DNA of 64,000 nucleotides from an uncultured Acidobacteriota bacterium (GCA_963695655.1 CAVOHG010000008.1:13380-77379), one strand, 5' to 3'; positions 5,592 to 62,528 are shown, counted from the first letter of the stretch. The notes: generated by a model not told the origin, from the sequence alone. Translations and numbers: made by a program.

Positions 5592-5975
5592 ATGGCTTCG
5601 ACCCAGACGGTCCTCGTCGTGGAGGACGATCCGGATTTGCGGCGCCTGTATCGGGCGGCGCTGACGTTCGCCGGCTTCGACGTCCAGATCGTCGGCGACG
5701 GCCTCGATGCGCTTCGCCGCATCGATACCGACCCGCCCTCTCTCGTCGTCCTCGATCTCTCGCTCCCGGTCATCAGCGGCGTCGTCGTCCAGCAGCAAAT
5801 CGCCTCGAGCGCGTTGACCCGCGACATCCCGGTCGTGGTGGTGACGGGCAGCCCTGAAAAAGCCGACGGCCTGAGCGTCGCGTGCGTGCTGGCGAAGCCG
5901 GTCTCGCCCGGACCGGCTGATCCGCACGGTCAAGTCGTGCCTGGCGGCAGGCGCGAGCGGCGTATCCGGCGATAG
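5592..5975 (+). CDS. single-domain response regulator (CheY-like receiver); C-terminus disturbed by an extra G near 5910
   Basis: Receiver signature: MASTQTVLVVEDDPDLRRLY...LVVLDLSLPVISG...PVVVVTG...LAKPVSP. Removing one G restores the typical KPVSPDRLIRTVKSCL. The real stop is unresolved. Confidence 0.85.
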   Translation: MASTQTVLVVEDDPDLRRLYRAALTFAGFDVQIVGDGLDALRRIDTDPPSLVVLDLSLPVISGVVVQQQIASSALTRDIPVVVVTGSPEKADGLSVACVLAKPVSPGPADPHGQVVPGGRRERRIRR

Positions 5976-6058
5976 CTCTCAGCTATCAGCTATCAGCTGT
6001 CAGCTATCAGCTCTCAGCCATCAGTCAGCTATCAGCTGTCAGCAATCAGTACTCAGCC
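5973..6058. repeat. tandem heptanucleotide array, unit TCAGCTN, about 12 units
   Basis: Sequence reads tagctc tcagcta tcagcta tcagctg tcagcta tcagctc tcagcca tcag tcagcta tcagctg tcagcaa tcagtac tcagcc. Confidence 0.9.
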
Positions 6059-6187
6059 TCCCAGCACCCACTCACAGCTGTCCAGCGCCATACGGGCACC
6101 CTCCGGTCGACGCAGGGCGCCGGCTGACGACGCTCAAACGTATAATGCGGCCACCGCGCCGACCACTCCCGCGGACCGGAGACGAGC

Positions 6188-6974
6188 ATGAGCACGACCG
6201 CTACCCTCGATCGCGCCTTCGATGTCGCGTCGATCACCGAGCGTTTCTACGTCCGGATGGCGATCGCATTCCTCGCCGTGGCGTTCATCGGATTCGCGCC
6301 AACGTACTGGGTGCCGATGGTACGCGGCACGCTCGCCGTCAGGCCGATTGCGCACGTTCATGCACTGTTCTTCTATGGCTGGCTGCTGCTGTTCCTGAAG
6401 CAGTCCTCGCTTGCGGCGTCAGGCCGGCTGGTCAGGCACCGCGAAATGGGCGTGCTCGGAGTCGCCGTCGCGACCGGGATGTGCTTCGTCGGCCTGGCGA
6501 TGGCGGTCGACAGTATCCGCACGATGGATGCTGCCGGATTCGGCGATGCGGGTCGTCGGTTCGCGATCGTGCCGGTGACGGCGATTGCGCTGTTTGCGGG
6601 GATGTTCGCGGTGGCGCTGCTCAATGTGAGCAGGCCTGAGGTGCACAAGCGCGTCCTGCTCGCCGCGACCGCCTCGCTCCTGCAGGCAGCGGTCGGCCGC
6701 TGGTTCGTGCTCGCCCTTGCGCCGCCGCGCCCTGCCGGCATGATCGGCCCTGTCGAGCCCTCCGCCGGTGGCGGTCAGCATCGGGCCAGGTCTCGTCGTG
6801 GATCTCCTGATTGTCATCGCGATGGTGCACGACCGCCGGACCACGGGACGCGTGCATCGGGCGTATTGGATCGCCCTGGCGGTCATCCTGTCGGTGCAGG
6901 TGCTGCGTGTGCCGGTGAGTGCCACGAGCGCGTGGATGCACGTCCCGCAGTGGCTGCTGGCGCTGGCACCTTAG
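6188..6974 (+). CDS. hypothetical polytopic membrane protein, frameshift near 6765
   Basis: ORF 6188..7033 has multiple hydrophobic segments up to ..LAPPRPAGMIGPVEP. ORF 6768..6974 continues with GPGLVVDLLIVIAMVHDRRTTGRVHRAYWIALAVILSV. Confidence 0.6.
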
Positions 6975-7007
6975 GCATTGCACGCGCCGTGAATCGACGC
7001 CGGCGCG

Positions 7008-8904
7008 CTACCGTGGCGCGGCCTGGGGCGTGACGGCCTCCCGGTCCCACAGGGTGTTGGTCACGTAGAGCAGGACGACTCCGCTGACGACGAAGACGGC
7101 GGTCAGCGTCAGTGCTGCGCCGGTGCGGCCGTAGAGGAAGTTGCCAATCGCGAAGAGCGATGACCAGATCGTGAGACACCCCGAAATCCACCCGACTGTC
7201 GCCTTGCCCATGGCGTCGCTGTAGAGCGCCGCCTCGGCGTCGCTGACGCCAGCGTCGCGCCGAACCCTCGCCCAGCCCGGGCCCGACGGATGCACTTTCT
7301 GGTAGAACGCGATCAGCCGCTCGCGGCTGGTCGGCGGGCTCACGTAGGCGGTGATGAGCCATGCGAACGTCGTGAAGGCAACGGAGTAGAGGACGGTGTG
7401 GGCGAACGGTAACTCGTGGCCGTTCTTCTTCATCACGAAGAACACGACCGAGATCGTGAACGAACTCACCATCGCGACCACTTCGGTCCAGGCGTTGATC
7501 CGCCACCAGAACCAGCGCAGGAGGTAGAGCAGGCCGGTGCCGGCGCCAATCGAAATCAGGACCTCGAACGCCTCCTGCGCCGAGGCCAGAACGGTGCTGA
7601 GCAGCGCCGCCAGCACGTAGAGCCCGACGGTGCAGGCACGACCGACTGCCACGTAGTGCTTCTCGGGTTTGTCGGTGGCGATGAACCGCCGATACATGTC
7701 GTGGACCAGGTACGAGGAGCCCCAGTTGAGATGGGTCAGGATGGTCGAGGAGTTCGCCGCGAGCAGGCCGCCGACCATCAGCCCGACGAATCCCGGCGGG
7801 AGAAACTTGAGCATGGCCGGAAAAGCGCTGTCGTGGCCGATCAGTCTTCGGATCGGCCCCGGGGAACGCCGCCTGGATGTCCTTCAGCTCGGGGAAGATG
7901 ATGATCGAGCAGAGTGCGGTGAGGATCCAGGGCCATGGGCGCAGGACGTAGTGGGCGAGATTGAAGAACAGCGTGCCGCCGAGGGAGTCCTTTTCGGATT
8001 TCGAGGCCAGCATCCGCTGCGCGATGTAGCTGCCGCCGCCGGGCTCCGCGCCGGGATACCAGTTCGCCCACCAGCCGATGGCAATCGGTACGATGAAGAT
8101 CATCAACGCGAGCTCGCTCAGCGCGAAGTTCGGCATCACGTCGAGGATCGGCTGGCCGCTGCCGTCGATCGGCGATAGCACCGGCTGCGCCCCCGCCTGA
8201 TAGTTGACCTGCTGCGCACCGAGCACGCGCACCAGCTCGTGAAGGCCTGAGAGTGCGCTGTTGCCGACGCCTGTGTGCCGGGCGACTTCCTTCAGTGAAA
8301 AATACGCCGCGGCGATCACGGCAGTCATCTTGATGAAGAACTGCACCATGTCGATCACGAGCACGCCCCAGAGCCCCGCGTGCGCGGCAAAGACGACGTT
8401 GAATGCGCCGCAGATCAGGATCGTCTGCCACGGCGGCAGTCCGAAGAGGATGTTGGCAATCTTGCACGCCGCGAGCGTGACCATCCCCATGATGAAGCAG
8501 TTGAAGAACAGCCCGAGGTAGATCGCACGGAAGCCGCGGACGACGGAGGCTGCCGTCCCCGAATACCGCAGCTCGTAGAACTCGAGGTCGGTCATCACGC
8601 CGGAACGGCGCCACAGCCGGGCGAAGAAAAAGACCGTCGACACACCCGTCAGCACGAACGCCCACCATTGCCAGTTGCCGGCGACGCCGTACTGCCGCAC
8701 CTGCTGCGTCACCCAGTTCGGCGTGTCGCTGCTGAACGTGGTCGCGACCATCGACAGCCCCGCCAGCCACCACGGAACCGAGCGCCCGGAGGCGAAGAAC
8801 TCCGACGTGTTCTTCCCGGCGCGGCGGGCGAAGAAGAGCGCCGGGACGAAACAGATCAGCACCGTGAGCACGACGATGACCCAGTCGATGGTGTGGAGTG
8901 TCAT
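7008..8904 (-). CDS. sodium:solute symporter (SSS) family transporter, frameshift near 7845
   Basis: Starts MTLHTIDWVIVVLTVLICF..FFASGRSVPWWLAGLSMVATTFSSDTP..GGGSYIAQRMLASKSEKDS. The next frame continues LIGHDSAFPAMLKFLPPGFVGLMVGGLLAANSSTI. Confidence 0.85.
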
Positions 8905-8962
8905 GGGATCGCTGGAGTATAAGCACCGATCACAGGTCAATTGCACGCTCGGCCGGAGGCCT

Positions 8963-11902
8963 CTACCGCGGTCGGCCGGTCTCTCGCCGGGCGCCCTCCA
9001 GGGCTTCGGACGCGGCCTTGACCGCCACGGCGGTTGGCGCGACATCGGCGTCCTGGAGGTCGGTGTAGACGCGCTGGAGTGCGGCCAGGATGGGTGCCCG
9101 GACCTCCGGCGTCATGTCACGTCTGCTCACGTCATCGATCGCGTCCGACAGCTGCTTCGACAGCGAGAACTGGCGCTGCAGCGCGAGTATCGGCGTCTTG
9201 ACCCGCGGATCCATCTCGACACTCAGCGGCCGCGTCACGCTCGTGCCGTTCGCCGTCAGCCTCACCGTGTAGGTCCCGGGCATCGCCCACACTCCGTTCG
9301 GCTCGCGCGGGGTGTCGTGGAACACCGCCGCAATCGGGAACGAACGCCGCATCCCCTCCGGCGCACGGTAGTGCAGATCCCACACGAAGCGGTGCATTCC
9401 CGTCGCGGTCGAGAGTCGGAGGGTCGGCCGGATCCAGTACGCCGGCACGTTCGACTCGTCGCGCAACGGCTCGGCCGCATCCTCGCTCGAGTACTTGCGC
9501 ACGACCGCCCCGCCGGCATCGAGGATCTCCAGCGTCACCGGTCCACTCGCCGCTGACGCCAGGTAATAGTCGACCACCGCGCCGTCTGGAGGATTCTGAC
9601 CGGCCGGTTCCTCCTGGGGGAGGGGAGTGTCGGTGTTCATGTTCCAGCGCACCCGCAGCGCACGTGCGGGCGTGAAGAGATGAACGTCAGCAACAGGCGA
9701 TGCGAGCTGCCGCAGCGGCGTGATGTCGTCCAGGATCCAGAAGCCCCGGCCGTGAGTCGCGACGACGAGGTCGTCGCCCTTGATCACGAGATCCCGGATC
9801 GACGTCGCCGGCATGTTCTGCCGCAACGCCTGCCAGTGATCGCCGTCGTCGATCGAAAAATAGACCTGCTGCTCGGTACCCGCGAACAGCAGCCCCTTCC
9901 TGACCGCATCCTCTTTGACCGTGTTGACCGCCGCGCCGTCCGGGATGCCGCTGGTGATCGCGGTCCAGGTGGCGCCGGCGTCGCGGGTGCGGTAGATATG
10001 CGGGCGCAGGTCGTCGAGGCGGAACGTATTGACGGCGGCGTACGCGCCGAGCGGATTCGAATGTGATGCGTCGATGATCGAGACCTTCGACCAGGGCGTC
10101 AGCTGTGGCGGCGTGACGTCCTTCCAGGTCTTTCCCCCGTCAGCGGTGACGTGGATCAGGCCGTCGTCGGTCCCCGCCCAGATGCGGCCGATGTCGAGGT
10201 ATGACGGCGCCACCGTGTAGATGACACCGCGCTGAGTGGAGGCCGCCGCCGGGGTATCGCGGTATTTGCCGACACTCGCCGGAACTGGCCACGCCGCTCG
10301 AGTCAGATCCGGACTGACCTTGACCCACGTCTGCCCGCCGGTGATCGTCTTCCACAGCGTGTTGGAGGCGAAGTACAGGACATGCGGATCGATCGGCGAG
10401 AACACCACCGGCTGCGTCCTGACGGTGCGATACCCTGGTCCGACCGCAGCAGGCGCGACGTCCCGCACCTGTCCTGTCCGTCGATCGAAGCGGGTGATCT
10501 TGCCGCCGTAGACGATGTCCGGATCGAGCGGATCGGGCGCGACGTATCCGTACTCCTCGACGCCTACGGGCGTCCAGTCGCGAAACGTGATTTCGCCGTA
10601 GTTGCCGCGACTTGCGACACACGCCGATCCGCTTTCCTGCTGTCCTCCACAAACCCGATACGGGAAAGCGTTGTCGGTGCTCACATGGTAGAACTGCGCG
10701 GTCGGCTGGTTGTACCAGGAGCTGAAAGTCTCGCCGCCGTTCACGGTGATGATCGCGCCCTGATCCGACGCCAGCAGGATCACGTCCGGGTTGACCGGAT
10801 CGATCCAGACGCGGTGATAGTCGTCGCCGCCCGGCGCACCGCGAAATGCGCTGAACGTCCGGCCGCCGTCAGTGGATTTCCAGGTGACGATGCTGCCGGT
10901 GAAGACGATGTCAGGGTTTTTCGGATGGACTTTGACTTCGGCGAAATCCGAAGCCCGGGACGTGAAGCGCTCGTCCGTCGTCATCCGTGTCCAGTGCTCG
11001 CCGCCGTCGTCCGATCGATAAAGGCCGTTGCGGCGTCGCGCCTCGACCGTGGCAAACAGCCGCTGCGGCATGCTCGGCGCGACGGTGATACCGATGCGAC
11101 CGAGGCCGTCCTCGGCAAACGTCGGCAGCCCGTCGACGATCGGCCGCCACGTGCTGCCGCCGTCCGTCGACTTGAACACGGCACTGTTCGGGCCGGTGAA
11201 CACGCCGTTCTCCCACGGGCCCTGGCGGGACTCCCACAGCACGGCGTAGACGTTGTCGGGGTTCTCCGGATCGAGCACGACGTCGGCGCCGCCGGTGTTC
11301 TCGTCCTTGTAGAGCACCTTCTGGAACGTGCGCGCCCCGTCGGTCGATCGGAAGATCCCGCGTTCTTCGTTAGGCCCGTACGGATGTCCGAGCACCGCCA
11401 CGAACAGCCGGTTCGGATCTTTCGGATCGACCGCGATCTGCGGAATCTGCTGTCCGTCACGCAGGCCGAGGTGTGTCCATGTTCGCCCGGCGTCCGTGGA
11501 TTTGTAGATGCCATCGCCGGTCGAAAGGTCGGGACGCTGCAGCCCTTCACCGCTGCCGACGTAGATGATGTCAGGGTCGGATGGCGCAACCGCAAGGGAA
11601 CCGATCGATCCGGTGGGCTGATCGTCGAAAATCGGGGTCCAGACCCGGCCGTAGTCCGTGGTTTTCCACACACCGCCGTTGGTCACGCCGATATAGAAAA
11701 GGCCAGGTCGCGACGGAACGCCGGCCGCAGCTTTGGTGCGCCCGCCGCGAAACGGCCCGATCATGCGCCACCGCAATTCGCCGTACATCGAGGCCGGCGG
11801 CGCCTGGGCAGAAACAAAGTTCCACGACCCGCCCAGCGCCACGACGCACAGCACACCCGCCAGTCCAACCTTGACGATCGCCCTCACTGTCACCTCACGC
11901 AC
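8963..11902 (-). CDS. secreted BNR/Sortilin-Vps10-type beta-propeller protein (glycosyl hydrolase BNR-repeat-like), intact
   Basis: 979-aa uninterrupted ORF with a signal peptide and repeated S-x-D-x-G-x-T-W motifs (KSTDAGRTWTH, RSTDGARTF, KSTDGGSTW, RSDDGGEHW, KSTDGGRTF, TADGGKTW, RTRDAGATW). Confidence 0.85.
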   Translation of the reverse strand: MREVTVRAIVKVGLAGVLCVVALGGSWNFVSAQAPPASMYGELRWRMIGPFRGGRTKAAAGVPSRPGLFYIGVTNGGVWKTTDYGRVWTPIFDDQPTGSIGSLAVAPSDPDIIYVGSGEGLQRPDLSTGDGIYKSTDAGRTWTHLGLRDGQQIPQIAVDPKDPNRLFVAVLGHPYGPNEERGIFRSTDGARTFQKVLYKDENTGGADVVLDPENPDNVYAVLWESRQGPWENGVFTGPNSAVFKSTDGGSTWRPIVDGLPTFAEDGLGRIGITVAPSMPQRLFATVEARRRNGLYRSDDGGEHWTRMTTDERFTSRASDFAEVKVHPKNPDIVFTGSIVTWKSTDGGRTFSAFRGAPGGDDYHRVWIDPVNPDVILLASDQGAIITVNGGETFSSWYNQPTAQFYHVSTDNAFPYRVCGGQQESGSACVASRGNYGEITFRDWTPVGVEEYGYVAPDPLDPDIVYGGKITRFDRRTGQVRDVAPAAVGPGYRTVRTQPVVFSPIDPHVLYFASNTLWKTITGGQTWVKVSPDLTRAAWPVPASVGKYRDTPAAASTQRGVIYTVAPSYLDIGRIWAGTDDGLIHVTADGGKTWKDVTPPQLTPWSKVSIIDASHSNPLGAYAAVNTFRLDDLRPHIYRTRDAGATWTAITSGIPDGAAVNTVKEDAVRKGLLFAGTEQQVYFSIDDGDHWQALRQNMPATSIRDLVIKGDDLVVATHGRGFWILDDITPLRQLASPVADVHLFTPARALRVRWNMNTDTPLPQEEPAGQNPPDGAVVDYYLASAASGPVTLEILDAGGAVVRKYSSEDAAEPLRDESNVPAYWIRPTLRLSTATGMHRFVWDLHYRAPEGMRRSFPIAAVFHDTPREPNGVWAMPGTYTVRLTANGTSVTRPLSVEMDPRVKTPILALQRQFSLSKQLSDAIDDVSRRDMTPEVRAPILAALQRVYTDLQDADVAPTAVAVKAASEALEGARRETGRPR

Positions 11903-15697: not shown

Positions 15698-15747
15698 GGG
15701 GACGGGGATCGGGATTAGGGATTCGGGATTCGGGACTCGGGACTCGC
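15697..15747. repeat. tandem heptanucleotide array, unit GGGATTC/GGGACTC
   Basis: Sequence reads cggggac ggggatc gggatta gggattc gggattc gggactc gggactc gcc. Confidence 0.85.
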
Positions 15748-15836
15748 CTTCCGGGCTCGAAAGCTCGCGGGGTCAAACGGAGCAGGGTCCGCGGCTCGGG
15801 GCGTTCACCGCGTTATGCTGAGCCGGAGGAGCATTC

Positions 15837-16352
15837 GTGAGTGCATGGACAATCCGGACCGCCGCGTCGGCCGATCTCGCGCAGCTGACGGCGATCTACA
15901 ACCACTACATCGAGCACACCAGCGTCACGTTCGATTTGCGCCCCTTTACGCCCGAGGAGCGGCAGGGCTGGTTCGACGAGCACGCGACTGCAGGCGGCCG
16001 GATTCGTCTCCTCGTGGCCGCGGACGCCAACGGGCAGGTGGCTGGATACGCCACGACCAGCCGCTTCCGGCCAAAGGCGGCATACGACACCACCGTCGAG
16101 GCGAGCGTCTACTGCAGCCCGACTCACGTCGGCCAGGGTATCGGCACCCGTCTCTACAGCGAGCTCTTTCGAGTCATTGCCGGCGAAGACATCAACCGGA
16201 TCGTGGCGGGGGTGACGATGCCGAATGCGGCGTCACTCGCGCTGCATCGACGCTTTGGCTTCACCGAGGTGGGAGTTTTCTCCAGTGTGGGCCGGAAGTT
16301 CGATCGCTACTGGGACGTCATCTGGCTCGAGCGGGGACTCGATGGGGATTAG
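15837..16352 (+). CDS. GNAT N-acetyltransferase, phosphinothricin-acetyltransferase-like
   Basis: 171-aa intact ORF: IRTAASADLAQLTAIYNHYIEHTSVTFDLRPFTPEERQGWF..VYCSPTHVGQGIGTRLYSELF..NAASLALHRRFGFTEVGVF. Confidence 0.85.
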   Translation: MSAWTIRTAASADLAQLTAIYNHYIEHTSVTFDLRPFTPEERQGWFDEHATAGGRIRLLVAADANGQVAGYATTSRFRPKAAYDTTVEASVYCSPTHVGQGIGTRLYSELFRVIAGEDINRIVAGVTMPNAASLALHRRFGFTEVGVFSSVGRKFDRYWDVIWLERGLDGD

Positions 16353-16554
16353 GGATTGGGGATTGGGATTCGGGATCCGGGGCTCGGGATTCGGCGCTCG
16401 CGGTTCGGAGCGCGGGACTCGCCTGCCGCGCCGAAGCTCGCGGGGTCGACGGAGCGAAGGCGGGGGATTCGGGGCTCGGGACTCGGGAGAAGAGCTGGAA
16501 GCCGGGAGCTGAAAGCTGCAGCTGAAAGCTGAAAGCCGGCGAGCTGGAGCTGAA
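16350..16554. repeat. composite heptanucleotide arrays (GGGATTN family, then AGCTGAA family) enclosing a 47-bp element also found at 15739..15786
   Basis: First part reads gggattggggattgggattcgggatccggggctcgggattcgg. The second part reads gctggaagccgggagctgaaagctgcagctgaaagctgaaagccggcgagctggagctgaagctg. Confidence 0.85.
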
Positions 16555-16593
16555 GCTGACAGCGACCCGGGATCGAGCCGGGTCGCTGTCAGC
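16555..16593. terminator. perfect 16-bp stem / 7-nt loop hairpin between convergent genes (putative bidirectional terminator, no U-tract)
   Basis: GCTGACAGCGACCCGG gatcgag CCGGGTCGCTGTCAGC, 14 nt past the stop of the minus-strand gene. Confidence 0.5.
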
Positions 16594-16606
16594 TTACGCG
16601 CGCCGC

Positions 16607-17312
16607 TCAGTTCTTCGTCATCGTGAAGCCGCTGACAACCGCCTCGGTGTTGTGGGCCATGCGGAGGCCGTAGATGCCGTCGGTTGATTTCAGCTTGCCC
16701 TCCGCGACGAGCGCGGGCTTGTCGTAGCCGGCGACGACGGTGCCGTTGATGGAGCATTCGACGCGGTCGCCCTTGACCGAGACGGCAATCTCCTGCGTTA
16801 CCGGCTCGCCCGGGCGCCGAGGCCTTCTTCACCGCCGCGTTCGCCTCACCGCGCCGGCCGTTCATCGCGAACGGCTCGGGACCGAAGCCGCGGACGATGA
16901 AGTTGCCGTTGCCGTAGGCGGCGCAGTAGAGGAAGCTCTGCGTCGGCGTGCCGAGGTCGTTGCCCGCGATCATGATGCCGTATGGATGCGGGTGATCGTT
17001 GAGCCCCATGTACTTCGGCTCATTGAACGTGGCCTTGACGGTGTAGTTGCCGGCGGCCTTGTTCGCCGGATTCCAGTACGTCACCGCCGGACCCGTCGTC
17101 ACATGGAAGTTGTCGCCCTCCTTCGCGAACTTCGCGTTGTTGAGGGTCTGACCGGATTTCTCTTCGCCGGGATCGACTTTGCCCGTCCAGCCGGGCACCG
17201 TGACGCCGCCACCGGCGACCGGGCGCGCCGTTTCGGGCGCCTGCGCACCGATCATCGCGGGAACGAGCATCGCGACCGTCACTGCTACCGCCGAACCGTA
17301 TACGAGACGCAT
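16607..17312 (-). CDS. secreted ConA-like/DUF1080-type jelly-roll protein, frameshift at a GGG run near 16810
   Basis: Starts MRLVYGSAVAVTVAMLVPAMIGAQA..NFHVTTGPAVTYW..YTVKATF..YGIMIAGND..FLYCAAYGNGNFIVRGF. After removing one G it continues PGEPVTQEIAVSVKGDRVECSINGTVVAGYDK..GIYGLRMAHNTEAVVSGFTMTKN. Confidence 0.55.
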
Positions 17313-23403: not shown

Positions 23404-23645
23404 CTGTTCGTCGGTTCCCTCTGCGTTCGTAGCTTCCGCCTGCGTTCGTAGCGTTCCGCCTGCGTTCGTAGCTTCCGCCTGCGTTCGTAGGTTCGGCCCG
23501 CGTTTGTGGCTTCGCGCCCGCGTTCGTAGCTTCCGCCCCGCGTTTGTAGCTTCCGCCCCGCGTTCGTAGCTTCCGCCCCGCGTTCGTAGCTTCCGCCTTT
23601 AGGCGGAAGAAGCCTGCGTTTCGTAGCTTCCGCCTTCAGCGGAAG
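23404..23645. repeat. tandem array of about 11 units of 19-20 bp (consensus CYGCGTTCGTAGCTTCCGCC) ending in two hairpin elements
   Basis: Units read ctgcgttcgtagcttccgc / ctgcgttcgtagcgttccgc / .. / ccgcgttcgtagcttccgcc x3, then gtagCTTCCGCCtttaGGCGGAAG and gtagCTTCCGCCttcaGCGGAAG. Confidence 0.9.
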
Positions 23646-23807: not shown

Positions 23808-24203
23808 GTGGGAATGCTTATGAATGTCCGGCTTTGGTTTGCAGCGCTCGCACTGGCGGTCATGACGGGATCTGTCGGCCGCGCCGCCGCAACCGACATT
23901 TCAGGTACGTGGACGGCATCGTTCGACACGCAGATCGGTCGCCAGAACTACACCTACGACTTCACGGTCAAGGACTCGACGCTCACCGGGAAGGCCAAGT
24001 CGGACAATGGAGAGACCGAGCTGACCGACGGCAAGGTGGACGGCGACACGGTGAGCTTCGTCGAGATGCTGAACTTCCAGGGCACGGCGATCCGCATTCA
24101 ATACACCGGAAAGATCACCTCGGCGGACGAGATCAAGTTCACGCGCCAGGTCGCGGACTTTGCGACCGAGGAACTGGTCGCGACCCGAGTGAAGGCGAAG
24201 TAG
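23808..24203 (+). CDS. small secreted hypothetical protein (beta-rich; SGTW..TYDFTVKDSTLTGKA..GKVDGDTVSF..YTGKI pattern)
   Basis: 131-aa intact ORF with a signal peptide (NVRLWFAALALAVMTGSVGRAAA). The start may instead be at one of the two in-frame ATG codons a few codons downstream. Confidence 0.6.
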   Translation: MGMLMNVRLWFAALALAVMTGSVGRAAATDISGTWTASFDTQIGRQNYTYDFTVKDSTLTGKAKSDNGETELTDGKVDGDTVSFVEMLNFQGTAIRIQYTGKITSADEIKFTRQVADFATEELVATRVKAK

Positions 24204-33984: not shown

Positions 33985-33993
33985 GAAATACGG

Positions 33994-42990: not shown

Positions 42991-44395
42991 CCTCGAGAAC
43001 GCTGACGCCGCTCAATCTCGCGTTGATCGCGTTCGGGGCCGTCGTGCTCGGGCACGCACTCCAGATTCGTGACGGCTTCTACGATGCCGTCGCGCTCCGA
43101 TGGGCACTGCTTGCGGCCGCGTGCGTTCTCGCCGGCGCGGCGCGCCTCGGCGGCGCCGCGCAGGATGAGAGCGTCGGAGCCCGTGGTTGCCGGCGTCCTG
43201 CTCGCCGGACTGCTGTCGAACCTGCTCGCGCTCGCGACGATGCCGGTCGGCATGTACCTGGTCCATCCGGAACCGGCACGTCACCCGGAGTTCCTCGCGG
43301 GCACTGCGGTTGCTGCCGTTCTGATCGTGCTCATGGCATCGGACCGGGAGCGCGCGCGATCGCTGTGGTTCCCGGCACTGCTGGCGATGTACGCCGAGCT
43401 CGGGGTGTGGCTGATTCGCGTGTCGCCGCGGCCACACATCGACGTGATGACAGTGTTCCAGGAAGGCCTCGCGGCACTCGGAACACTCAAGAGTCCGTAT
43501 TCGATCACCTTCCCGAACATTTACGAAAACGCCGACCTCTATGGCGCTGGCCTGGTCGTCAACGGCCAGGTTCAATTCGGCTTTCCGTATCCGCCGCTCA
43601 GCCTGTTGATGGCGGCACCGGCGTATCTCCTCGGCGGGGACGTCCGCTACGCGGAGCTCACGGCGCTCGTGGCCGGGGCCGCGTGCATTGGATACTGCGG
43701 CCGTGGCCGGATCGGGCCGCTGGCGGCCGCCGCGCTTCTGTTCACGCCGCGGACCTTCTTCGTGCTCGAGCAGGCGTGGACCGAATCACTCGTCATCTGC
43801 TGGGCGGGTCTGACAGTGTTCGCGGCGACGAGAGTGCCTGTCATTCGCCGAAGTGTCGGCCGCGCCGGGACACTGCGAGGTGTGGCTCTCGGACTCCTGG
43901 TAGCGGTCAAGCAGCACCTCGCGATTGCGCTGATGCTGACGGCGTGGCTTCGCCGGCCCAGAAGAAGATCGTCGCACGGCATTGACGATCTTCATCGTTG
44001 CGTGCGCGACCGCGGCGGCGGTGACGCTCCCATTTGCTTTCTGGGATCCCGGCGGCGTGTGGCGGTCGGTCGTGATCCTGCAGCTGCGGGAGCCGTTCCG
44101 GGCCGACTCGCTCAGCGTCCTCAGTTATTACGCCAGCCACGGCTGGCAGCCGACGCAGGGTATCTTGCTGGCTGCACCGCTCTGTGCGCTCGCCGCAGGG
44201 CTGGGATTGTCGTGGTGGCGCCTGCCGCGGACGCCCGCGGGGTTCGCGATCGGCCTCGGCACAACCTTCCTGCTCCTGTTCCTCGTCAGCAAAAAGGCGT
44301 TCTGCAATTACTACTTTCTCGTGATCGCGCTGCTGATGGCGGGTGTTGCGGCCGCGAGTGCGGACTTGACGGAGACGGATGGGGGGAGCGGATGA
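42987..44395 (+). CDS. polytopic membrane protein, DUF2029/GT87-like (GT-C glycosyltransferase fold), frameshifts near 43170 and 43965
   Basis: The GTG start overlaps the ATPase stop (GTGA). Many TM segments; [60 protein letters not shown]. Confidence 0.45.
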
Positions 44396-44396
44396 A

Positions 44397-44490
44397 CGGT
44401 TCCGGGTTCCGGGTTCCGGGTTCCGGGTTCAAGGTTCCGCGTTCGTTTCGGAGCGCCGAGCCCCGAATCCCGAGCCCCGAGTCCCGCCGC
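44397..44490. repeat. tandem heptanucleotide arrays (GGGTTCC x4-5, then CCCGARN)
   Basis: Sequence reads cggttcc gggttcc gggttcc gggttcc gggttca aggttcc gcgttcg tttcgga gcgccga gccccga atcccga gccccga gtcccgc. Confidence 0.9.
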
Positions 44491-44497
44491 TACGGGC

Positions 44498-45876
44498 CAG
44501 ACGGCGCCGGATTGTGCCACTCGCGGCTTCCGTTCGTCAGCTGGCTCTCCTGTGAGGGGTCCCCACGATCCGGGCGCGTACTCGTAGACCGGCGTCACGT
44601 TGCCAAGCACGTTGTCGACCACGGCCCACGCCGCTTCGACGCCGTCCTGACGGGCGAACAGCGTCTGATCGCCATCCATCGCATCGTCCAGCAGTCGCTC
44701 GTAAGCATCGAGGTCGTCACCATTGGGCTGGTGGACGACACTCAATTCGGTCTGGTCGCCAACCATCTCGTCCCCTGGCCGCTTGACCCGCGCGCCGAGC
44801 GCAATCGTCACGTCGGGGCTCAGGCGGAAGCGCACGTAGTTCGTCTCGCCCGGGCACAGGCTGCTGAGGGGTGGCGGCCTGAGCGTCACCATCACCTCGG
44901 TCGTGGTCGTCGCCATCGACTTGCCGGCGCGCACGAGAAACGGCACGCCGTCCCAGCGCCACGAATCGATGTGGATGCGCGCGGCGACAAACGTCTCGAC
45001 CTGCGAATCTGGCGCGACTCCGTGCTCCTTGCGGTATCCGCGGAACTGGCCGCGGACGACGTCGGTTGGCCCGAGCGGCCGCATCGTCTTCAGGATCTTC
45101 ACCTGCTCGTCGCGCATCGATTGCTGCACCGCCTTGGCCGGCGGCTCCATTGCCAGGAAGCCAATCACCTGCAGCATGTGATTCTGCAGGACGTCACGGA
45201 TGGCGCCGGACTCCTCGTAGAAACCGCCGCGGCCTTCCACGCCGAACCTCTCCGCCATCGTGATCTGCACGCTTTCGATGTAGTGGCGGTTCCAAATTGG
45301 CTCGAGGAACGTGTTCGCGAATCTGAACAACAGCAGGTTGAGCACCGCCTCCTTGCCGAGGTAGTGATCGATCCGGAAGACTCGTGATTCGTCGAATACG
45401 GTGTGCAGCGTGGCGCTGAGCTCGCGGGCTGATGCGAGATCGCGGCCGAACGGCTTTTCGACGACGACGCGGCCATTGGTCGCGCAGCCGGAACGTCCAA
45501 GGCCTTCGACGATGGTGCCGAATTGGCTCGGTGGAATGGCGAGGTAGTGGAGCGGACGCGTGGCGCCGCCGAGCTCCTTGCGAAGTGTCTCGTACGTCCC
45601 CGGATCGGCGTAGTCGCCGCGCATGTAGCGCAGCCGTCCCATCAGCGCGGCGAGGGCGCGGTCGTCGACTGGCCCATGCTGCGCGACGCTCTCGCGCGCG
45701 CGCGCCTGGAACTGCTCGAGCGTCCAGTCGGATCGGGCGACGCCCACGACCGGGACGTCGAGGTGGCCGCGACGCGCCATGGCAAGCAGGGCGGGGAAGA
45801 TCTTCTTGTAGACGAGGTCGCCGGTCGCGCCAAAGAAAACAAGCGCGTCGGACCGTCCAGTGGTGTCAGCCATCAT
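44498..45876 (-). CDS. zwf: glucose-6-phosphate 1-dehydrogenase, frameshift in a C/G run near 44557
   Basis: [28 protein letters not shown] and EKPFG motifs. After removing one C the tail reads [26 protein letters not shown] with a stop at 44498..44500. Confidence 0.95.
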
Positions 45877-45892
45877 CAAAGCTTAGACGCAA

Positions 45893-45952
45893 ACGTGCTA
45901 CGTTCCACGTCCAACGTGGAACGTGGTACGTTCCCACGTGCTACGTGCGAAA
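45893..45952. repeat. tandem heptanucleotide array with constant ACGT core (same family as 24209..24263)
   Basis: Sequence reads acgtgct acgttcc acgtcca acgtgga acgtggt acgttcc cacgtgct acgtgcg. Confidence 0.85.
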
Positions 45953-51721: not shown

Positions 51722-52285
51722 TCACTCGCGTCCCACTCCGAGCGCATCTGCGACGCGATTGATGTAGTTGAACCATGAGGCGATGAGCGTGATTTGCAGG
51801 ATGCCGCGATCGTCGAAGCCTTCGGCTCGAAGCCGATCGTGGAACTCCGGTCCGATCATCGTCGCGTCACGCGTGATCTGCTCGACATACTCGAGCATGA
51901 CCCGATCCTGGCTGGAGATTGGGGCCGACCGGTAGTCGCGCTTCAGCGCCTCCACGAACTCGTCGTCCAGCGTCACTCTACGCAGAAACTCTGCGTGGGA
52001 CTCCAGTCAATACTGGCACCGGTTGATCGACGACACGACGGTCGTGATCATCTCGTGCTGCCGGCGGGTGAGGGGCAGGTCGGTCGACATCAGCGCGCCG
52101 AACGCGGCGAAGGCATGATGCAGCGCGTCCGGTATCAGCGAGTGCGAGCCGACGATTCCATCGGTGTCCTTGTGATGCGGATGTGTCGGCTGCGCGTACT
52201 CAATCGGGTAGAGCGCATGCTGGGCCGCGCGCGCCTCGCGCAGCCGCTCGTCGTCTTCGAAGGGTACCGTGCGAATCCATGTCAT
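51722..52285 (-). CDS. AhpD/carboxymuconolactone-decarboxylase-family peroxidase-related protein with in-frame TGA at 52007..52009 (candidate selenocysteine; otherwise a split gene)
   Basis: [93 protein letters not shown]. The two ORFs are in the same frame, and the TGA sits at Cys2 of the CxxC motif. Confidence 0.7.
51980..51996 (-). promoter_or_regulatory. SECIS-like stem-loop 10 nt downstream of the in-frame UGA
   Basis: mRNA reads UGA CUGGAGUCCC ACGCAG AGUUU CUGCGU: a perfect 6-bp stem and a 5-nt loop with G at loop position 2. A bulged lower stem is possible. Confidence 0.4.
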
Positions 52286-56714: not shown

Positions 56715-56897
56715 GAGTTCTATTAGGTTCTACCGGGTTCTACCAGGTTCTACGGGTTCTGCCAGGTTCTACGGGTTCGAGGGATCGAACCCAGCGGAAC
56801 CTTCTGAACCTCGTAGAACCCTGGTAGGTGTAGCTTCCGCCTTCAGGCGGAAGTAAGGGCGAAAACCCCGTAGAACCTTGCGAACCCTGCAGAACCC
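56715..56897. repeat. composite intergenic structure: GGTTCTAC direct repeats, central palindrome, inverted GTAGAACC repeats and an embedded hairpin element
   Basis: Left arm: ggttctaccgggttctaccaggttctacgggttctgccaggttctac. Centre: GGGTTCGAgggaTCGAACCC (56773..56792). Right arm: ..cgtagaaccctggtag, gtagCTTCCGCCttcaGGCGGAAG, ..ccgtagaaccttgcgaaccctgcagaaccc. Confidence 0.85.
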
Positions 56898-58668
56898 TCA
56901 GTAGAGCGTGTACGTGTAGAGCGTGTCGCCGACGGCGACGATGACGTACTGGTGCCCGTCGATCATGTAGGTCTGGGGCGCGTTCGAGATCGTGCCGATG
57001 CGCGAGTGCCACAACGGTTTGCCGTTTGCGGGATCGTGAGCGACGAGGTTGCCTCCCTTGTCGCCGGCGAAGAGCAGCTTGCCGGCGGTCGCAAGCAGGC
57101 CGGCGCCGCCGCCGCCCGAGTTGCCCGGGTACTCGATGCCGCCAGGCGATGTTGCCGGTCTTGGGATCGATCGCCGTCAGGTAACTGGGGTACGAACCGA
57201 CCGCTACGGTCTGCTTGCCGCCGAGCCCCATCGAGCCACGCGGATCAGGATCGGTCAGGTAGATCAGCTGGAACCCGTTGTTCTCCTGCGTGTAGAACAG
57301 ACCGGTGTCCGGCGAATACGCCGGCGGCGGCCAGTTGGTGACGCCGCCTTCGACCGGCGACACGAGTGACCCCGGTACGGTGGCTTCCTTCTCCGGGTTC
57401 GGCTCGGGCGCACCATTCTTCCGCAGTCCCTTGGACCAGTTCGTCGTCGTCCCGTACTTGCTCGTCGCGATGTTTTCCCCCGTGACCCGGTCCACGGTGA
57501 AGAAGTAGCCGTTGCGAGCGGCAGTCGAGACCATCTTGCGCTGCCGTCCGGCAATGACGCCGTCGATGAGCACCGGCGTCTGGGCGGAGTCCCAGTCGTG
57601 CGTGTCGTGAGGGGAGGTCTGGTAGTACCACGCCATCTTGCCGGTCTCGACGTTGACGGCGACGAGGGAGCAGGTGAACAGGTTGTCACCCTTCCGCGCG
57701 ACGCCCGTGTAGCCCGGCGTCGGGTTGCCGGTGCCGAAGATGTACAGCTTCGTTTCGGCATCGTAGACGCCGGGGATCCAGACCTGGCCACCGCCGTGGC
57801 GTGCGGCCTCGAGGCTCGGCCACGTGTCGAGGCCGGGGTCACCGGGATTCATCGGGACGGTATAGAACTTCCACTGGAGCTTACCCGTCTCGGGATCGAA
57901 GGACTGCAGGAAGCCGGGCGCATCGAGGTCGTTTCCGGTTCCGGCGAGCACGTGGTTGCCGATGACCATCGGCGCCATGGTCGAGAAGTACTGCTGGTTG
58001 AAATCGGCGATTTCGACGTGCCAGCGCTCCTTGCCGGTACGCGCATCGAGCGAGACCAGGTAGTTGTCCGGCGTTTCGAAGTACAGGTAGTTGTTCCACA
58101 TCCCCATGCCGCGGCTGCCGATGTGGGTGCCTCCCTTCGTCTTCCAGTAGTAGTGCCAGAGCTCGCGGCCATCGCGCGCGTCGATCGCCCACGCATTGTC
58201 CGGCGCCGAGATGTAGAGCACGCCGCCGACCTGCAGGATCGCTCCCTTGATGTTGGCGTTGCCGCCAGCCGCGAACTCGCCGCTGCCTTCACCACCGACG
58301 ATCACCGGCGCCGCGCCGCCGAACCCACCGCGTCCGCCGCCGAATCCGCCGCCGCCACCGGCATTCCCCGCACCGGCGGTGAGCTTCGACACCCATGCGA
58401 GCGTGAGGTTCTTGACGTTCGTCTGGTTGACCTGCGTCAGTGTGCTGTAGCGCCGGCCGGTGTAGTCGCCTGAGTAGCTCGTCCACTCCTCGGCGAGTGG
58501 TTTCAGCATCGCCGCGGGATCGAGGCCGCCCTGGCCCTGAGGCTGTGCCGCGGGAGCAGGTGCTGCCTGCGCAGCCGGAGCTGCCTGGCCCTGCGGCTGA
58601 CCCTGCGCGGCGAGGAGCACCGGGACCACGGCGACCGCGGTCGTGAGCAATATCTTTTTCAATGTCAT
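56898..58668 (-). CDS. PQQ-dependent dehydrogenase (methanol/ethanol-family 8-bladed propeller) with Gly-rich insertion, frameshift near 57136
   Basis: YSGDYTGRRYSTLTQVN..LAWV..GGVLYISAPDNAWAIDARDGRELW..GNPTPG..GDNLFTCSLVAVNVETGKMAWYYQTSPHDTHDWD. The corrected tail reads LLFAGDKGGNLVAHDPANGKPLW..YVIVAVGDTLYTYTLY. Confidence 0.85.
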
Positions 58669-59834: not shown

Positions 59835-61613
59835 ATGTCTTCACTCCTCGATGCCACAGGTCACTCGAGGACACGAGCGACGGCGGCCGCGGCGATGGTG
59901 TTGTCGACCGCGCTCCTCGCCTCGGATGCCGTTGTCCCTGGCCAGGCCCCGGCCAGCCGGAATTTTCCAACCGTCGGTGGCAACCTCGCCAACCAGCGGC
60001 ACTCGTCGCTCACCCGAATCACGAAGACGAACGTCAGCCATCTTGGCGGCGCCTGGATGATTCACCTCGAGGACGGCCAGCCGGCGGGCACGATGCAGGC
60101 GACGCCAGTTGTCGTCGACGGCGTCATTTACATCGCGACAGGCATCGGAAATGTCTTCGCTGTCGATGGAGCGACCGGCGCGATCAAGTGGAAGTACCGG
60201 TCAGGAGGTCGTCCCGGGAGCAATCGCGGAGTCGCCGTCGGAGGCGGCCGCGTCTTCGCCGGTCAGCGCGACAACTCGCTCGTCGCGCTCGATCAGAAGA
60301 CCGGCTCGCGGCTGTGGCGCAGCGAGCTGGCCACGACTGGCCCGGGCACGACGAGCGCGCCAGCGACCTACCACGACGGCCTGGTTTACATCGGCATCGG
60401 CGGCGGCGAGCTGGGGGTTCGGGGACAGTTCGGGGCGTACGATGCGGCGACCGGCAAAGAGGTGTGGAAGTTCTGGACCATCCCGGCGCCGGGAGAACGC
60501 GGCAGCGAGACCTGGGAAGGAGAGTCGTGGCGCTACGGCGGCGCTCCGGTATGGACGCAGCCCGCGATCGATCCGGCGCTCAATACCGTTTACGTCGCAG
60601 TCGGCAACGCGGGACCTGACAACGACGGCACCGCGCGTGCCGGTGACAACCTGTTCACCGTGTCGATCGTGGCGCTCGATGCGAAAACGGGCGCGTACAA
60701 GTGGCACTTCCAGGAGGTGCACCACGATTTGTGGGACTACGACAACGCCGCCGCGCCAGTGCTCGCCGACATCCGGTTCAACGGTCGCAAGCGGCAGATC
60801 CTGATGCACGGCGGCAAGACGGGGATGATGTACATCCTGGACCGCGTCACCGGTAAGCCACTCATCGGCATCGAGGAGCGCGCGGTGGCGCAGGAACCGC
60901 GGATGAAGACCGCGCCGACGCAGCCGTTTCCCATCGGTGATTCGTTCGTGCCGACCTGTCCCGAGCCTGGCAGCGTTGATCCGAAGTATCCGACGAGTTG
61001 CATCTTCGGCGGTTACTGGACCGAACCCGTCGTCATGGCGCCGGGCACGCAGGGAGGGCTCTCGTGGGCACCGATGGCGTTCAACCCGCAGACCGGTTTG
61101 ATCTACGTGCCGGGCAGTATCATCAATTCGGGTTTTTCCCTGCGGCGGCAGGAATGGGATGAAAGCACGCGGAGTTTCCGTGCCGTCGGCACCGGGGCAG
61201 GATTCTTTCGTCCTCCGGGCGAACCGCGCAGCGGCACCCTGACAGCGATCAATCCCACGACGAACAAGATCGTGTGGCAGAAGCGGACGAAGTTCCCGAT
61301 CGGAACGGGGAGCGGACTCCTGAGCACGGCGACCGGGCTGCTCTTCCACGGCGAGTCGGATGGCAGAATGCTCGCCTACGACATCACCACTGGCGAGCCA
61401 CTGTGGAACTTCCAGACCGGCGCCGGCGCGGACGCGCCCGCCGTGACCTACGAGATCGGCGGCGAGCAGTACGTCGCGATTCTCGCGGGCGGCAACACGT
61501 TTCAACTATCGGAACGCGGAGACAATCTCTGGGCGTTCAAACTCGGCGGCAAAGTGCCGCCCGCTCCCGCGCCGCCCGAGCCCCCGACGACGCAGCCGGG
61601 CCCGCCGAAGTAA
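59835..61613 (+). CDS. PQQ-dependent dehydrogenase (soluble quinoprotein propeller), intact
   Basis: QATPVVVDGVIYIATGIGNVFAVDGATGAIKW..LVALDQKTGSRLW..GDNLFTVSIVALDAKTGAYKWHFQEVHHDLWDYD..YVAILAGGNT. Confidence 0.85.
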   Translation: MSSLLDATGHSRTRATAAAAMVLSTALLASDAVVPGQAPASRNFPTVGGNLANQRHSSLTRITKTNVSHLGGAWMIHLEDGQPAGTMQATPVVVDGVIYIATGIGNVFAVDGATGAIKWKYRSGGRPGSNRGVAVGGGRVFAGQRDNSLVALDQKTGSRLWRSELATTGPGTTSAPATYHDGLVYIGIGGGELGVRGQFGAYDAATGKEVWKFWTIPAPGERGSETWEGESWRYGGAPVWTQPAIDPALNTVYVAVGNAGPDNDGTARAGDNLFTVSIVALDAKTGAYKWHFQEVHHDLWDYDNAAAPVLADIRFNGRKRQILMHGGKTGMMYILDRVTGKPLIGIEERAVAQEPRMKTAPTQPFPIGDSFVPTCPEPGSVDPKYPTSCIFGGYWTEPVVMAPGTQGGLSWAPMAFNPQTGLIYVPGSIINSGFSLRRQEWDESTRSFRAVGTGAGFFRPPGEPRSGTLTAINPTTNKIVWQKRTKFPIGTGSGLLSTATGLLFHGESDGRMLAYDITTGEPLWNFQTGAGADAPAVTYEIGGEQYVAILAGGNTFQLSERGDNLWAFKLGGKVPPAPAPPEPPTTQPGPPK

Positions 61614-61690
61614 GCTGACGGGATCGGCGGTACACTTCGGGGTGAGGCTCGGCCGAACCGATCGCGAGCCCAGGCCCCCGACTGACTGTT

Positions 61691-61736
61691 CCGAGATCCC
61701 GAGTCCCGAATCCCGAGTCCCGAGTCCCGAGTCCCG
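61691..61736. repeat. tandem heptanucleotide array CCCGAGT (reverse complement of the GGGACTC family) ending 1 nt before a start codon
   Basis: Sequence reads ccgagat cccgagt cccgaat cccgagt cccgagt cccgagt cccgt ATG. Confidence 0.9.
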
Positions 61737-61737
61737 T

Positions 61738-62382
61738 ATGATCGCCAACCCCCACGCAGGCCAGAAACCCCTTTGGCGAGGTCCGGCGACGTCCGCGGCG
61801 CGCCTTGCCGTCATCCTCGTACACGGACGTGGTGGTTCGGCGAGTGAGATGCTGACCCTTGCCGACGAGCTCGGGATTTCGGACATCGCCTGGGTGGCGC
61901 CACAGGCAGCGGGGCACACCTGGTATCCGTATTCGTTCCTCGCGCCGATCGAACAGAATGAGCCGGGGATCTCGTCAGGGCTGGGCGTGCTCGCTGGACT
62001 TGTGGAGGACCTCGGTCGAGGCGGCATCCCGGCGAGCCGTGTCGGAGTGCTCGGCTTCTCCCAGGGCGCCTGCCTGTCGCTCGAATTCGCCGCCCGCCAT
62101 GCCGATCGCTATGCTGCGGTCGTGGGATTGAGCGGCGGCCTGATTGGCCCCCCGGGTACGCCTCGAGACTACGCGGGATCGCTCGCGGGCACGCCTGTGT
62201 TTCTCGGCTGCAGCGATGTCGACGCGCACATTCCGGTTGAACGCGTGCGCGAGTCGGCAACGGTTTTCCGCCGCCTCGAAGCCAGCGTCGACGAGCGCAT
62301 CTATCCACGGATGGGTCACACCATCAACCAGGACGAGCTCGACGCCGTGCGCACCTTGCTCTCGGCAGGAAAGAAGGCGTGA
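61738..62382 (+). CDS. alpha/beta hydrolase, phospholipase/carboxylesterase family (MhqD-like)
   Basis: LAVILVHGRGGSASEM..VGVLGFSQGACLSLEF (nucleophile elbow GFSQG)..VFLGCSDVDAHIP..YPRMGHTI. Confidence 0.8.
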   Translation: MIANPHAGQKPLWRGPATSAARLAVILVHGRGGSASEMLTLADELGISDIAWVAPQAAGHTWYPYSFLAPIEQNEPGISSGLGVLAGLVEDLGRGGIPASRVGVLGFSQGACLSLEFAARHADRYAAVVGLSGGLIGPPGTPRDYAGSLAGTPVFLGCSDVDAHIPVERVRESATVFRRLEASVDERIYPRMGHTINQDELDAVRTLLSAGKKA

Positions 62383-62408
62383 GAGCTAGCCGGGAGCAGA
62401 AAGCGCCG

Positions 62409-62528
62409 GTCAGTAGCCAGTAACCAGTAGCCAGTTGCTGAGAACTGATTGCTGACAACTGATTGCTGAGAACTGATTGCTGAGAACTGATTGCTGATAA
62501 CTGAGAGCTGATCGCTGATAGCTGTCAG
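62409..62528. repeat. tandem heptanucleotide array, about 17 units (GCCAGTA, then alternating CTGATTG/CTGAGAA, then GCTGATA)
   Basis: Sequence reads gtcagta gccagta accagta gccagtt gctgaga actgatt gctgaca actgatt gctgaga actgatt gctgaga actgatt gctgata actgaga gctgatc gctgata gctgtca. Confidence 0.9.

Follow-up and report, generated by a model that had tools for sequence, protein, structure and literature searches.

Intergenic arrays of head-to-tail 7-bp units have been described from several bacterial lineages. Heptanucleotides of the short tandemly repeated repetitive (STRR) type were reportedly found in heterocystous cyanobacteria by Mazel and colleagues in 1990, and STRR families are defined by cyanobacterial unit sequences, for example CCCCAGT in STRR1. 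As summarised in two later papers (PMC4679880, PMC4692102), the survey of Mrazek et al. 2007 found heptamers to be the most abundant class of long simple sequence repeats (SSRs) in most of the genomes that it covered, and it proposed slippage as their origin (per PMC4679880). Those described in detail include the GGGAATC arrays of Xanthomonas and the GGGGAYT arrays of Nostoc PCC 7120 (Rehm et al. 2015, PMC4692102), and the TAACTGA arrays of Beggiatoaceae, cyanobacteria and Bacteroidetes (MacGregor 2015, PMC4679880). Here we report on tandem heptanucleotide arrays in a 64,000-nucleotide stretch of DNA from an uncultured Acidobacteriota bacterium (GCA_963695655.1, CAVOHG010000008.1:13380-77379; hereafter the window), and in the genome to which it belongs. 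That genome, of a soil acidobacterium and labelled G000, comprises 6.218 Mb in 9 contigs with approximately 66% G+C, and the window is C8:13380-77379 within it.

On present evidence the arrays belong to the known class of heptanucleotide long SSRs, in a new lineage, and are not a new kind of system. They have the features of that class: tandem 7-nt units, an excess of period 7, a mainly non-coding location, and a copy number that varies between related genomes, the last judged at four orthologous spacers and in a duplicate that is 95% identical. They are most likely a product of DNA slippage and not of a dedicated system. A preliminary account of the window, made from its sequence alone (the sequence-only reading), had been aware of no description for Acidobacteria-like genomes; consistent with this, a full-text literature search returned no description of heptamer arrays for Acidobacteria.

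Heptanucleotide arrays in the window and the genome

We observed the specificity for period 7 directly, by several measures. Among genome-wide Tandem Repeats Finder (TRF) rows with at least 3.5 copies, 919 had a period of 7, compared with 158 of period 6, 84 of period 8, 112 of period 9 and 61 of period 10. Merging of the period-7 rows yielded 823 arrays that cover 42.9 kb, or approximately 132 arrays per Mb. Exact 16-nt self-matches, a measure independent of threshold and annotation, numbered 247 at a lag of 7, 180 at 14, 96 at 21 and 48 at 28, as against 7 at a lag of 6 and 5 at a lag of 8. Core-phased patterns of four copies were found essentially at period 7 only, with 474 (overlapping) hits for CTGA, 321 for CGGG, 269 for ACTGG, 105 for ACGT and 76 for AGCT. 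The sequence-only reading, which would have been abandoned had period 7 not been enriched genome-wide, is borne out by both the TRF rows and the lag matches, and the arrays of the window are well beyond chance expectation.

Within the window TRF recovered a period-7 array at each place where one had been proposed, and the unit families seen on reading the sequence were the same as those proposed. The heptamer arrays of the window, with their sources, are:

5974-6049: approximately 11 units of CAGCTAT/CAGCTGT/CAGCTCT (TRF unit AGCTATC, 11 copies; TRF and sequence)
15705-15746, plus strand: GGGATTC/GGGACTC, 6 units, G-rich on the plus strand (TRF and sequence)
16341-16421, plus strand: GGGATTN/GGGGCTC, approximately 11 units, downstream of the GNAT gene 15837-16352 (TRF)
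16464-16488, plus strand: short GGGACTC array (TRF)
16493-16563, plus strand: AGCTGAA-type array of approximately 9 units, with a 34-bp higher-order repeat (TRF, row 16507-16536)
24210-24262: ACGTGCN (TRF unit ACGTGCA), approximately 7 units (TRF; fold z -1.3)
33935-33981: ACTGGTG/ACTGGAA (ACTGGNN), inside the 3' tail of a HAD-hydrolase open reading frame (ORF) (TRF and translation)
44398-44444: 6.7 copies of GGTTCCG, between convergent genes (TRF)
44451-44486: 5 copies of CCCGAGC/CCCGAAT, adjoining array 44398-44444 with a different unit (TRF)
45893-45948: ACGTNNN array, an inverted pair giving a perfect 19-bp hairpin (TRF; fold -22.5 kcal/mol, z -5.3)
61691-61736, minus strand: CCCGAGT/CCCGAAT (TRF unit CCGAGTC), 6.4 units, G-rich on the minus strand, in a co-directional spacer (TRF)
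62411-62524: composite array between convergent genes, ending at the TAG stop of gene 62529-63467 (TRF and sequence)

To place the arrays relative to genes we used our own codon-usage gene caller, which covered approximately 82% of the genome. Because this caller is rough, and because G+C content at third codon positions is only about 0.72-0.80, the counts by spacer type are approximate. Roughly 80% of the arrays were non-coding (less than 10% coding overlap) by these calls, in a genome of which about 19% is non-coding. Array density per kb was 1.22 in convergent spacers, 0.53-0.63 in co-directional and 0.30 in divergent ones; among spacers of at least 100 bp, an array was present in 26% of the convergent, 15-16% of the co-directional and 9% of the divergent ones. 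This bias in position is a direct observation, as is the closeness to stop codons. The median distance from an array to the nearest stop was 6 nt in convergent spacers, and in co-directional spacers 107 of 354 arrays overlapped the upstream stop or lay no more than 10 nt from it, with starts further away. The statement in the sequence-only reading that arrays fill most longer intergenic regions was too strong: genome-wide only 9-26% of spacers of at least 100 bp have one, a single array fills a median of 23% of its spacer, and in the window roughly 10 of some 25 such spacers contain an array. No consistent sense or antisense bias was detected for the unit families genome-wide, and on this ground we ruled out a strand-specific RNA motif.

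The genes beside the window arrays are functionally unrelated according to Pfam, and include a response regulator, PadR, GNAT, MFS, isochorismatase, HAD and G6PD. Gene 5592-5975, for the response regulator (Pfam Response_reg), has its TAG stop within the first unit of array 5974-6049, and downstream of the array, near 6141, a -10-like TATAAT box is conserved. Array 24210-24262 occupies the short spacer from gene 23808-24203 to the MFS transporter gene (Pfam MFS_1), in a 5' leader position.

The proposal that the arrays are intergenic holds for the large majority, but some window arrays run inside the 3' ends of the G6PD and HAD ORFs. The G6PD ORF (44311-45879, minus strand) continues for approximately 70 codons beyond the conserved YAPGSWGP end, across two heptamer arrays (44311-44560), and the HAD-hydrolase ORF (33899-35149, minus strand) has an array-encoded tail at 33899-34000. 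Because both ORFs cross arrays, they have repeat-encoded C-terminal tails; either the original stop codons were overrun by arrays or the ORF ends are spurious. Separately, the gene caller split the AhpD-family gene 51722-52285 into ORFs 51722-51976 and 52007-52285.

The nearest parallels resemble these arrays to different degrees. The long SSRs of the Mrazek survey, as later papers summarise it, share with ours the dominant period of 7, a large, high-G+C genome of a free-living organism, an intergenic location, a phylogenetic scatter and a proposed origin by slippage; Acidobacteriota are not among the lineages highlighted in those summaries, and the repertoire and density found here are unusually high. 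The units GGGATTC, GGGACTC and GGGGATT lie 0-1 base from those of Xanthomonas and Nostoc, and the Xanthomonas arrays are likewise intergenic, depleted between divergent genes, close to stops, present as inverted pairs, beside genes of all functional classes, and kept in position between related species while variable in length (PMC4692102). The work of Rehm et al. 2015 concerned one G-rich family per genome and about 185 arrays (PMC4692102), whereas G-rich units make up only about one third of the arrays here. The TAACTGA repeats of Beggiatoa are also intergenic direct repeats of heptamers, and CTGA is the commonest phased core here (CTGATAA, CTGAGAA, CTGATTG, CTGATAG); in contrast, they consist of one unit in 2-6 copies just upstream of starts (PMC4679880), whereas we found many units that are mostly 3'-proximal.

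The sequence-only reading had offered the cyanobacterial STRRs as the one well-known parallel. That comparison is correct at the level of class, since both comprise several tandem, intergenic heptamer families per genome, but with Xanthomonas, Nostoc and the Beggiatoaceae it is not the only one. Because the phylum and most of the units differ, the arrays are of the same class as STRRs without being members: an STRR1-like CCCCAGT/ACTGGGG unit is a minor family (9 TRF arrays) within the ACTGGNN group, the dominant units are different, and the best protein matches are to Acidobacteriota (Bryobacterales and Vicinamibacteria metagenome-assembled genomes (MAGs), 68-72%, for a protein prone to horizontal gene transfer).

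Two other classes of repeat do not correspond. SSRs of contingency loci (phase variation) lie in the promoter or the 5' part of the ORF of surface or virulence genes, where copy number switches expression. A 7-nt unit within an ORF would shift the frame, but the present arrays are mostly 3'-proximal and depleted from coding DNA, and their neighbours are the genes listed above. Nor are they CRISPR arrays, in which repeats of 23-50 bp alternate with unique spacers of similar length, in contrast to 7-bp head-to-tail units without spacers.

Internal anatomy and turnover at orthologous spacers

The repertoire comprises 76 abundant units around at least five cores, and the top 10 units account for about half of the arrays. 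By single substitutions, 68 of these 76 canonical units (3,351 of 3,637 unit copies) join into one network, compared with a maximum of 52 among 200 random unit sets of equal size, a test of only moderate power; the ACGT family lies outside the network. The composite array at 62411-62524 can be read in one register throughout, from four CCAGTAG units through TGAGAAC/TGATTGC to TGATAGC, and because of this single register we take three of the families distinguished by the sequence-only reading to be variants of one another. Higher-order blocks were directly observed: TRF called 5 copies of a 14-mer (TGAGAAC TGATTGC), matching at 94%, at 62435-62504, and 3.3 copies of another 14-mer, matching at 96%, at 33936-33981. 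Arrays of 3-4 units form a shoulder in the copy-number distribution, which falls at 5, and this is so for GGG, CTGA, ACTGG and ACGT cores alike.

Comparison of orthologous spacers revealed, also by direct observation, rapid change in copy number and in unit sequence. The closest metagenome relative that we retrieved (L158) is 88% identical. For the spacer at 61613-61738 the contents are:

This genome: 6 near-perfect CCCGAGT units
G010: approximately 14 units of the same CCCGAGT family, in the same orientation
L158 (metagenome contig Ga0170475_122324530, 88% protein identity): 5 degenerate units
G020: 3 degenerate units
G013: no units

At the spacer 16352-16637, a G-rich array is followed by an AGCTGAA-type array both in this genome and in G013. 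The numbers are (AGGGATC)x10 plus approximately 19 units in G013, and approximately 11 plus approximately 9 here, with a hairpin module (described below) inserted. In four genomes of the same genus (G010, G003, G017 and G020) the orthologous junction has no arrays and only a terminator-like hairpin. Here that hairpin is a perfect, GC-rich 18-bp stem at 16553-16595, without a T-run, immediately beyond the stop codon of the convergent gene on the minus strand. A hairpin occurs at this position in six genomes (syntenic junctions L150, L151, L153, L154 and L155) with a different sequence in each. Such positional conservation with covariation makes the hairpin a likely terminator; to judge from the sequences compared, it is the conserved feature of the junction and the arrays are optional additions.

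The GNAT gene 15837-16352 has similar composites of a GGGATT array and a hairpin module on both sides. The whole segment 15686-16611 is missing from the syntenic junction of G010, where approximately 104 nt separate the flanks, and G013 retains a remnant of the 3' end of the GNAT gene; the segment may have been gained or lost through its repeats.

In the spacer orthologous to that of the 5974 array, G013 and G020 have no array but keep the downstream TATAAT box. A second copy of window positions 1-10296 is present, reversed, at the very end of contig C3 (C3:1-10314) at 95.4% identity. Either the segment was duplicated recently or the assembly combines heterogeneous strains, its estimated contamination being 4.95%. 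The two copies of the 5974 region hardly differ in promoter, leader and start, and their arrays, similar in number of units, align at only approximately 60%. The window copy is homogenised (AGCTATC three times; AGCTCTC, TATCAGC and TGTCAGC twice each), and the C3 copy is heterogeneous.

The L158 array orthologous to 62411-62524 has the same beginning and end without the block of five 14-mers. With no outgroup for this pair, the difference is either a recent expansion here in a two-unit register or a loss in L158. The spacer orthologous to 62382-62529 in L158 (L158:826-1170) additionally contains four hairpins of the repetitive extragenic palindromic (REP) family treated below and 8-9-bp arrays of the GTGCCAAG type. 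The spacers of this genus combine repeats of several classes in a mosaic.

Folding potential and companion repeats

The location of the arrays raises the possibility that they are selected cis-elements at the ends of transcription units, acting as hairpins, as G-quadruplexes or i-motifs, or as multivalent sites bound by a protein whose footprint is 7 nt. They would serve in transcription termination or insulation, or in the protection of mRNA 3' ends, with hairpins arising from inverted pairs and from palindromic AGCT, ACGT and CCGG cores. Although the enrichment between convergent genes and beside stop codons would be expected on this account, as would the persistence of arrays at some orthologous sites, we consider it unlikely. 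Adjacent array pairs (n=232) comprised 175 with different units, 42 inverted and 15 direct, and the excess of inverted over direct pairs of one unit also favours it. Clusters of at least two arrays fold far better than dinucleotide shuffles (median fold z -3.1, with 65% below -2), and the inverted pair at 45893 is a perfect hairpin. However, single arrays, which make up about three quarters of the clusters, fold like array-free spacers (median z -0.4, compared with -0.2 in the latter), and strong folds are confined to multi-array clusters; we therefore rejected the view that arrays form hairpins in general. Only three places in the window have strong hairpins: the pair at 45893 (z -5.3), a foldback at 56717 (z -6.3), and the putative terminator at 16553-16595 (z -6.8). 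On folding, the G- or C-rich arrays at 15705 (z 0.49), 16341, 44398 (z 0.86) and 61691 had no hairpin potential.

Selection at transcription-unit ends is further weakened by the lack of a strand bias relative to transcription, by the junction at 16352-16637, where a separate terminator-like hairpin is conserved in six genomes and arrays are optional, and by the freedom with which presence, copy number and unit sequence vary among close relatives. No Rfam family matched the window at gathering score, and between 15600 and 16700 there were only generic matches of the 18-bp hairpin to microRNA-precursor models.

A narrower form of the same idea concerns G-quadruplexes. The GGG-type arrays, such as 15705-15746 and 16341-16376, have at least four G3 tracts with loops of no more than 7 nt and, like those of CCC units among the arrays without hairpin potential, fit the G3N4 motif, for which folding in vitro has been demonstrated with GGGAATC (Rehm et al. 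2015, PMC4692102). The majority of arrays, those with CTGA, ACTGG, ACGT and AGCT cores, lack such tracts. In the Xanthomonas work a preference for four units was taken as a signature of the G-quadruplex (PMC4692102); here the 3-4-unit shoulder is seen in all cores, including those that are not G-rich, and is not specific to GGG. For these two reasons we rejected selection for G-quadruplexes as a general cause.

Several repeats of other kinds occur in the window, of which three rows are given here:

16429-16462, plus strand: GWA/GRA hairpin module, CGCC-GAA-GCTCGCGGGGTCGACGGAGC-GAA-GGCG, between G-rich heptamers; a separate family
23423-23597, plus strand: 20-bp tandem array, 8.9 copies of GCGTTCGTAGCTTCCGCCC, the left half of a REP; not heptamer (TRF)
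56717-56898: GGTTCTAC units of 9-10 bp with a long foldback hairpin at 56740-56827; not of the heptamer family (TRF; fold z -6.3)

The sequence-only reading had included the last of these as a related 9-10-bp form of the heptamer arrays. The repeat is present (TRF periods of 10 and 19 bp at 56717-56778) but forms a family separate from the heptamers, with at least 20 loci in the genome. Units of GTAGAACC complementary to GGTTCTAC follow at 56864-56898, beyond a REP hairpin at 56830-56853.

The module has the form CGCC-G(A/T)A-GC, a variable, covarying stem-loop, and GC-G(A/G)A-GGCG, and the 3x3 internal loop is conserved. The genome has 52 non-coding copies that fit the strict form (for example at C8:777387, C9:14299 and C4:208343-208655), and when only the outer motif was fixed, 44 of 91 non-coding matches had an inner stem of at least 5 bp, as against 1.2% of shuffles, with 15 different stem sequences. 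Some copies adjoin tRNA genes and the rRNA operon spacer, and a degenerate one found by the module search (15747-15790) directly follows array 15705-15746. No orientation bias genome-wide and no Rfam match were found for the module. Across the order it reaches 87 copies per genome, compared with 0-4 for a reversed control, and array-free genomes are included among its carriers. The module may represent a motif not described before, of a terminator, processing or REP-like kind.

The genome also encodes a single REP-associated tyrosine transposase (RAYT), at C7:407071-407574 of G000, a Y1 transposase (PF01797) with the HUH motif PDHLHLLV and the tyrosine motif YIIGNPV. The REP hairpin GTAGCTTCCGSC-TTCA-GSCGGAAG stands on both sides of this gene, inverted, with five tandem units of approximately 100 bp on one side (C7:406740-407700); from these sequence features we assign the GTAGCTTCCGSC hairpin and the RAYT to a classical REP/RAYT system. 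Its copies in the window are at 23586-23609, where a complete hairpin terminates the 20-bp array that begins at 23423, and at 56830-56853. REP halves also occur elsewhere as 14-15-mer arrays, for example near C8:612894 on the minus strand. REPs resemble the heptamer arrays in being abundant extragenic repeats concentrated at gene 3' ends, whereas heptamer arrays are direct repeats without a palindrome, variable in unit and without a link to the RAYT.

The company of these families suggests another account, in which the arrays are part of, or were spread by, mobile or copy-paste elements (composites, foldbacks or REP/RAYT) and did not arise independently. A heptamer array lies within 40 nt of 42% of the 52 non-coding modules, compared with 6.6% of random non-coding positions; modules are six-fold enriched beside G-rich heptamers, in a fixed relative orientation, so that GGG units beside them share their orientation. 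The GNAT gene between two similar composites, the presence of a RAYT with cognate REPs and of foldbacks made of short tandem units, and the recurrence of a few unit types at hundreds of loci would also be in keeping with spread of this kind. We nevertheless think it improbable, more so than selected cis-elements. Neither conserved termini nor target-site duplications were seen, and the flanks appear to form no families once repeats are discounted, in an all-against-all BLAST comparison confounded by degenerate heptamers and other repeats. Orthologous arrays differ by expansion of internal blocks and not by the gain or loss of a defined element, the hairpin module is plentiful in array-free genomes (18 copies in G026, for example), and heptamer arrays are not palindromic REPs.

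Distribution across the phylum and origin of the arrays

The sequence-only reading had allowed that the arrays might be an artefact of one assembly, to be recognised by their absence from independent ones. No observation supports this directly, yet repeats do break short-read assemblies and the arrays of several relatives are at contig ends. The idea is refuted for all practical purposes by their presence in same-genus, phylum and metagenome assemblies, and at the same orthologous spacers. A search for CTGA-phased arrays gave 1 to approximately 350 hits in each of the 24 same-genus genomes searched, and outside the genus 8 of 16 further families of the order had such arrays. When Acidobacteriota were sampled evenly, 113 of 251 genomes had at least one array of five or more CKGR units. 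Among 80 independently assembled soil-metagenome loci from the Joint Genome Institute (JGI) around one window gene there were 18 period-7 arrays, as against no more than 3 of any other period.

In samples of relatives' DNA examined by TRF, period 7 was dominant in G010 (90 arrays per Mb, with the same unit families), in G015 and G033 (100 and 80 per Mb, with other units) and in G037 (182 per Mb). G003 had a weak period-7 signal, and a 60-kb sample of G039 contained none of these arrays. Some genomes exceed this one in CKGR hits (G123, approximately 2,400; G134, approximately 855; G086, approximately 700), and whole genera of 5-8 Mb genomes have no CKGR arrays; genome size is no explanation for the pattern. 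The reversed pattern that had been used as a "control" is not a null, because other heptamer families match it. G032, G047, G086, G120 and others have hundreds of reversed-pattern hits and few forward ones, from which it follows that their repertoires are built on other cores. Unit repertoires are thus lineage-specific, and the period is common to them. As a lineage determinant we considered Ku and non-homologous end joining, and rejected it: Ku is encoded in 92 of the same 251 genomes without relation to the arrays, there being array-rich genomes without Ku (G123, G134, G057, G064) and Ku-positive genomes without arrays (G029, G034, G143, G043, G055).

We think it likely that the arrays are 7-bp long SSRs turned over in place by slippage or unequal exchange, and that they are near-neutral in DNA under weak constraint. 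We infer slippage as the generating process because of the exclusivity of the period, the matches at multiples of 7, the 14-mer blocks, the in-register transitions between families and the turnover between orthologues. Replication slippage, unequal exchange or both would give birth to arrays in place and turn them over in registers of 7, 14, 21 and 28 bp, and mutation of a unit followed by re-amplification would produce a network of related families. Arrays would persist only in weakly constrained DNA, just past stops and above all between convergent genes, and would be purged from coding, promoter and leader DNA. Each array would pass through birth, expansion by whole units, homogenisation, decay and loss, changing much faster than its flanks. 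Near-neutrality, which we likewise infer, would mean that individual arrays are probably dispensable for any function; local effects on termination or on mRNA 3' ends are possible as side-effects of inverted-pair hairpins or G-rich arrays.

Several observations weigh against slippage as a complete account. By itself it does not explain the near-absence of 6- and 8-bp units, the dominance of a few unit types, or the occurrence of similar units in distant phyla (GGGAWTC, CTGA-containing and ACTGG/CCCCAGT-like). The distribution in the phylum is patchy, consistent within genera and independent of genome size, and for this reason a lineage-specific determinant is favoured over a universal property or footprint of the polymerase. 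In addition, some orthologous arrays persist across species in which the flanking proteins are only approximately 76-88% identical, and this persistence could reflect selection as well as self-renewal. We tentatively raise, as an unlikely possibility, a heritable determinant that is gained and lost by lineages, such as a variant of the replisome or of repair, or a protein that binds or extends heptamers, and that sets the period and the unit types. If true, it would explain why arrays are all-or-nothing at the level of genera, why 6- and 8-bp arrays are missing, and why units converge across phyla.

In large bacterial genomes, few repeat classes that still lack an explanation are as abundant as heptanucleotide arrays. 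For work on Acidobacteriota MAGs they have practical consequences, in that arrays break short-read contigs, make false C-terminal extensions past stops, and spoil intergenic alignments. This genome and its phylum also provide a test bed in which many unit families occur together, array-rich and array-free genera are closely related, and birth, block expansion and decay can be seen at orthologous spacers. Since a single phylum offers over 100 genomes rich in arrays and over 100 that have none, there is a chance to find what sets the 7-bp period.

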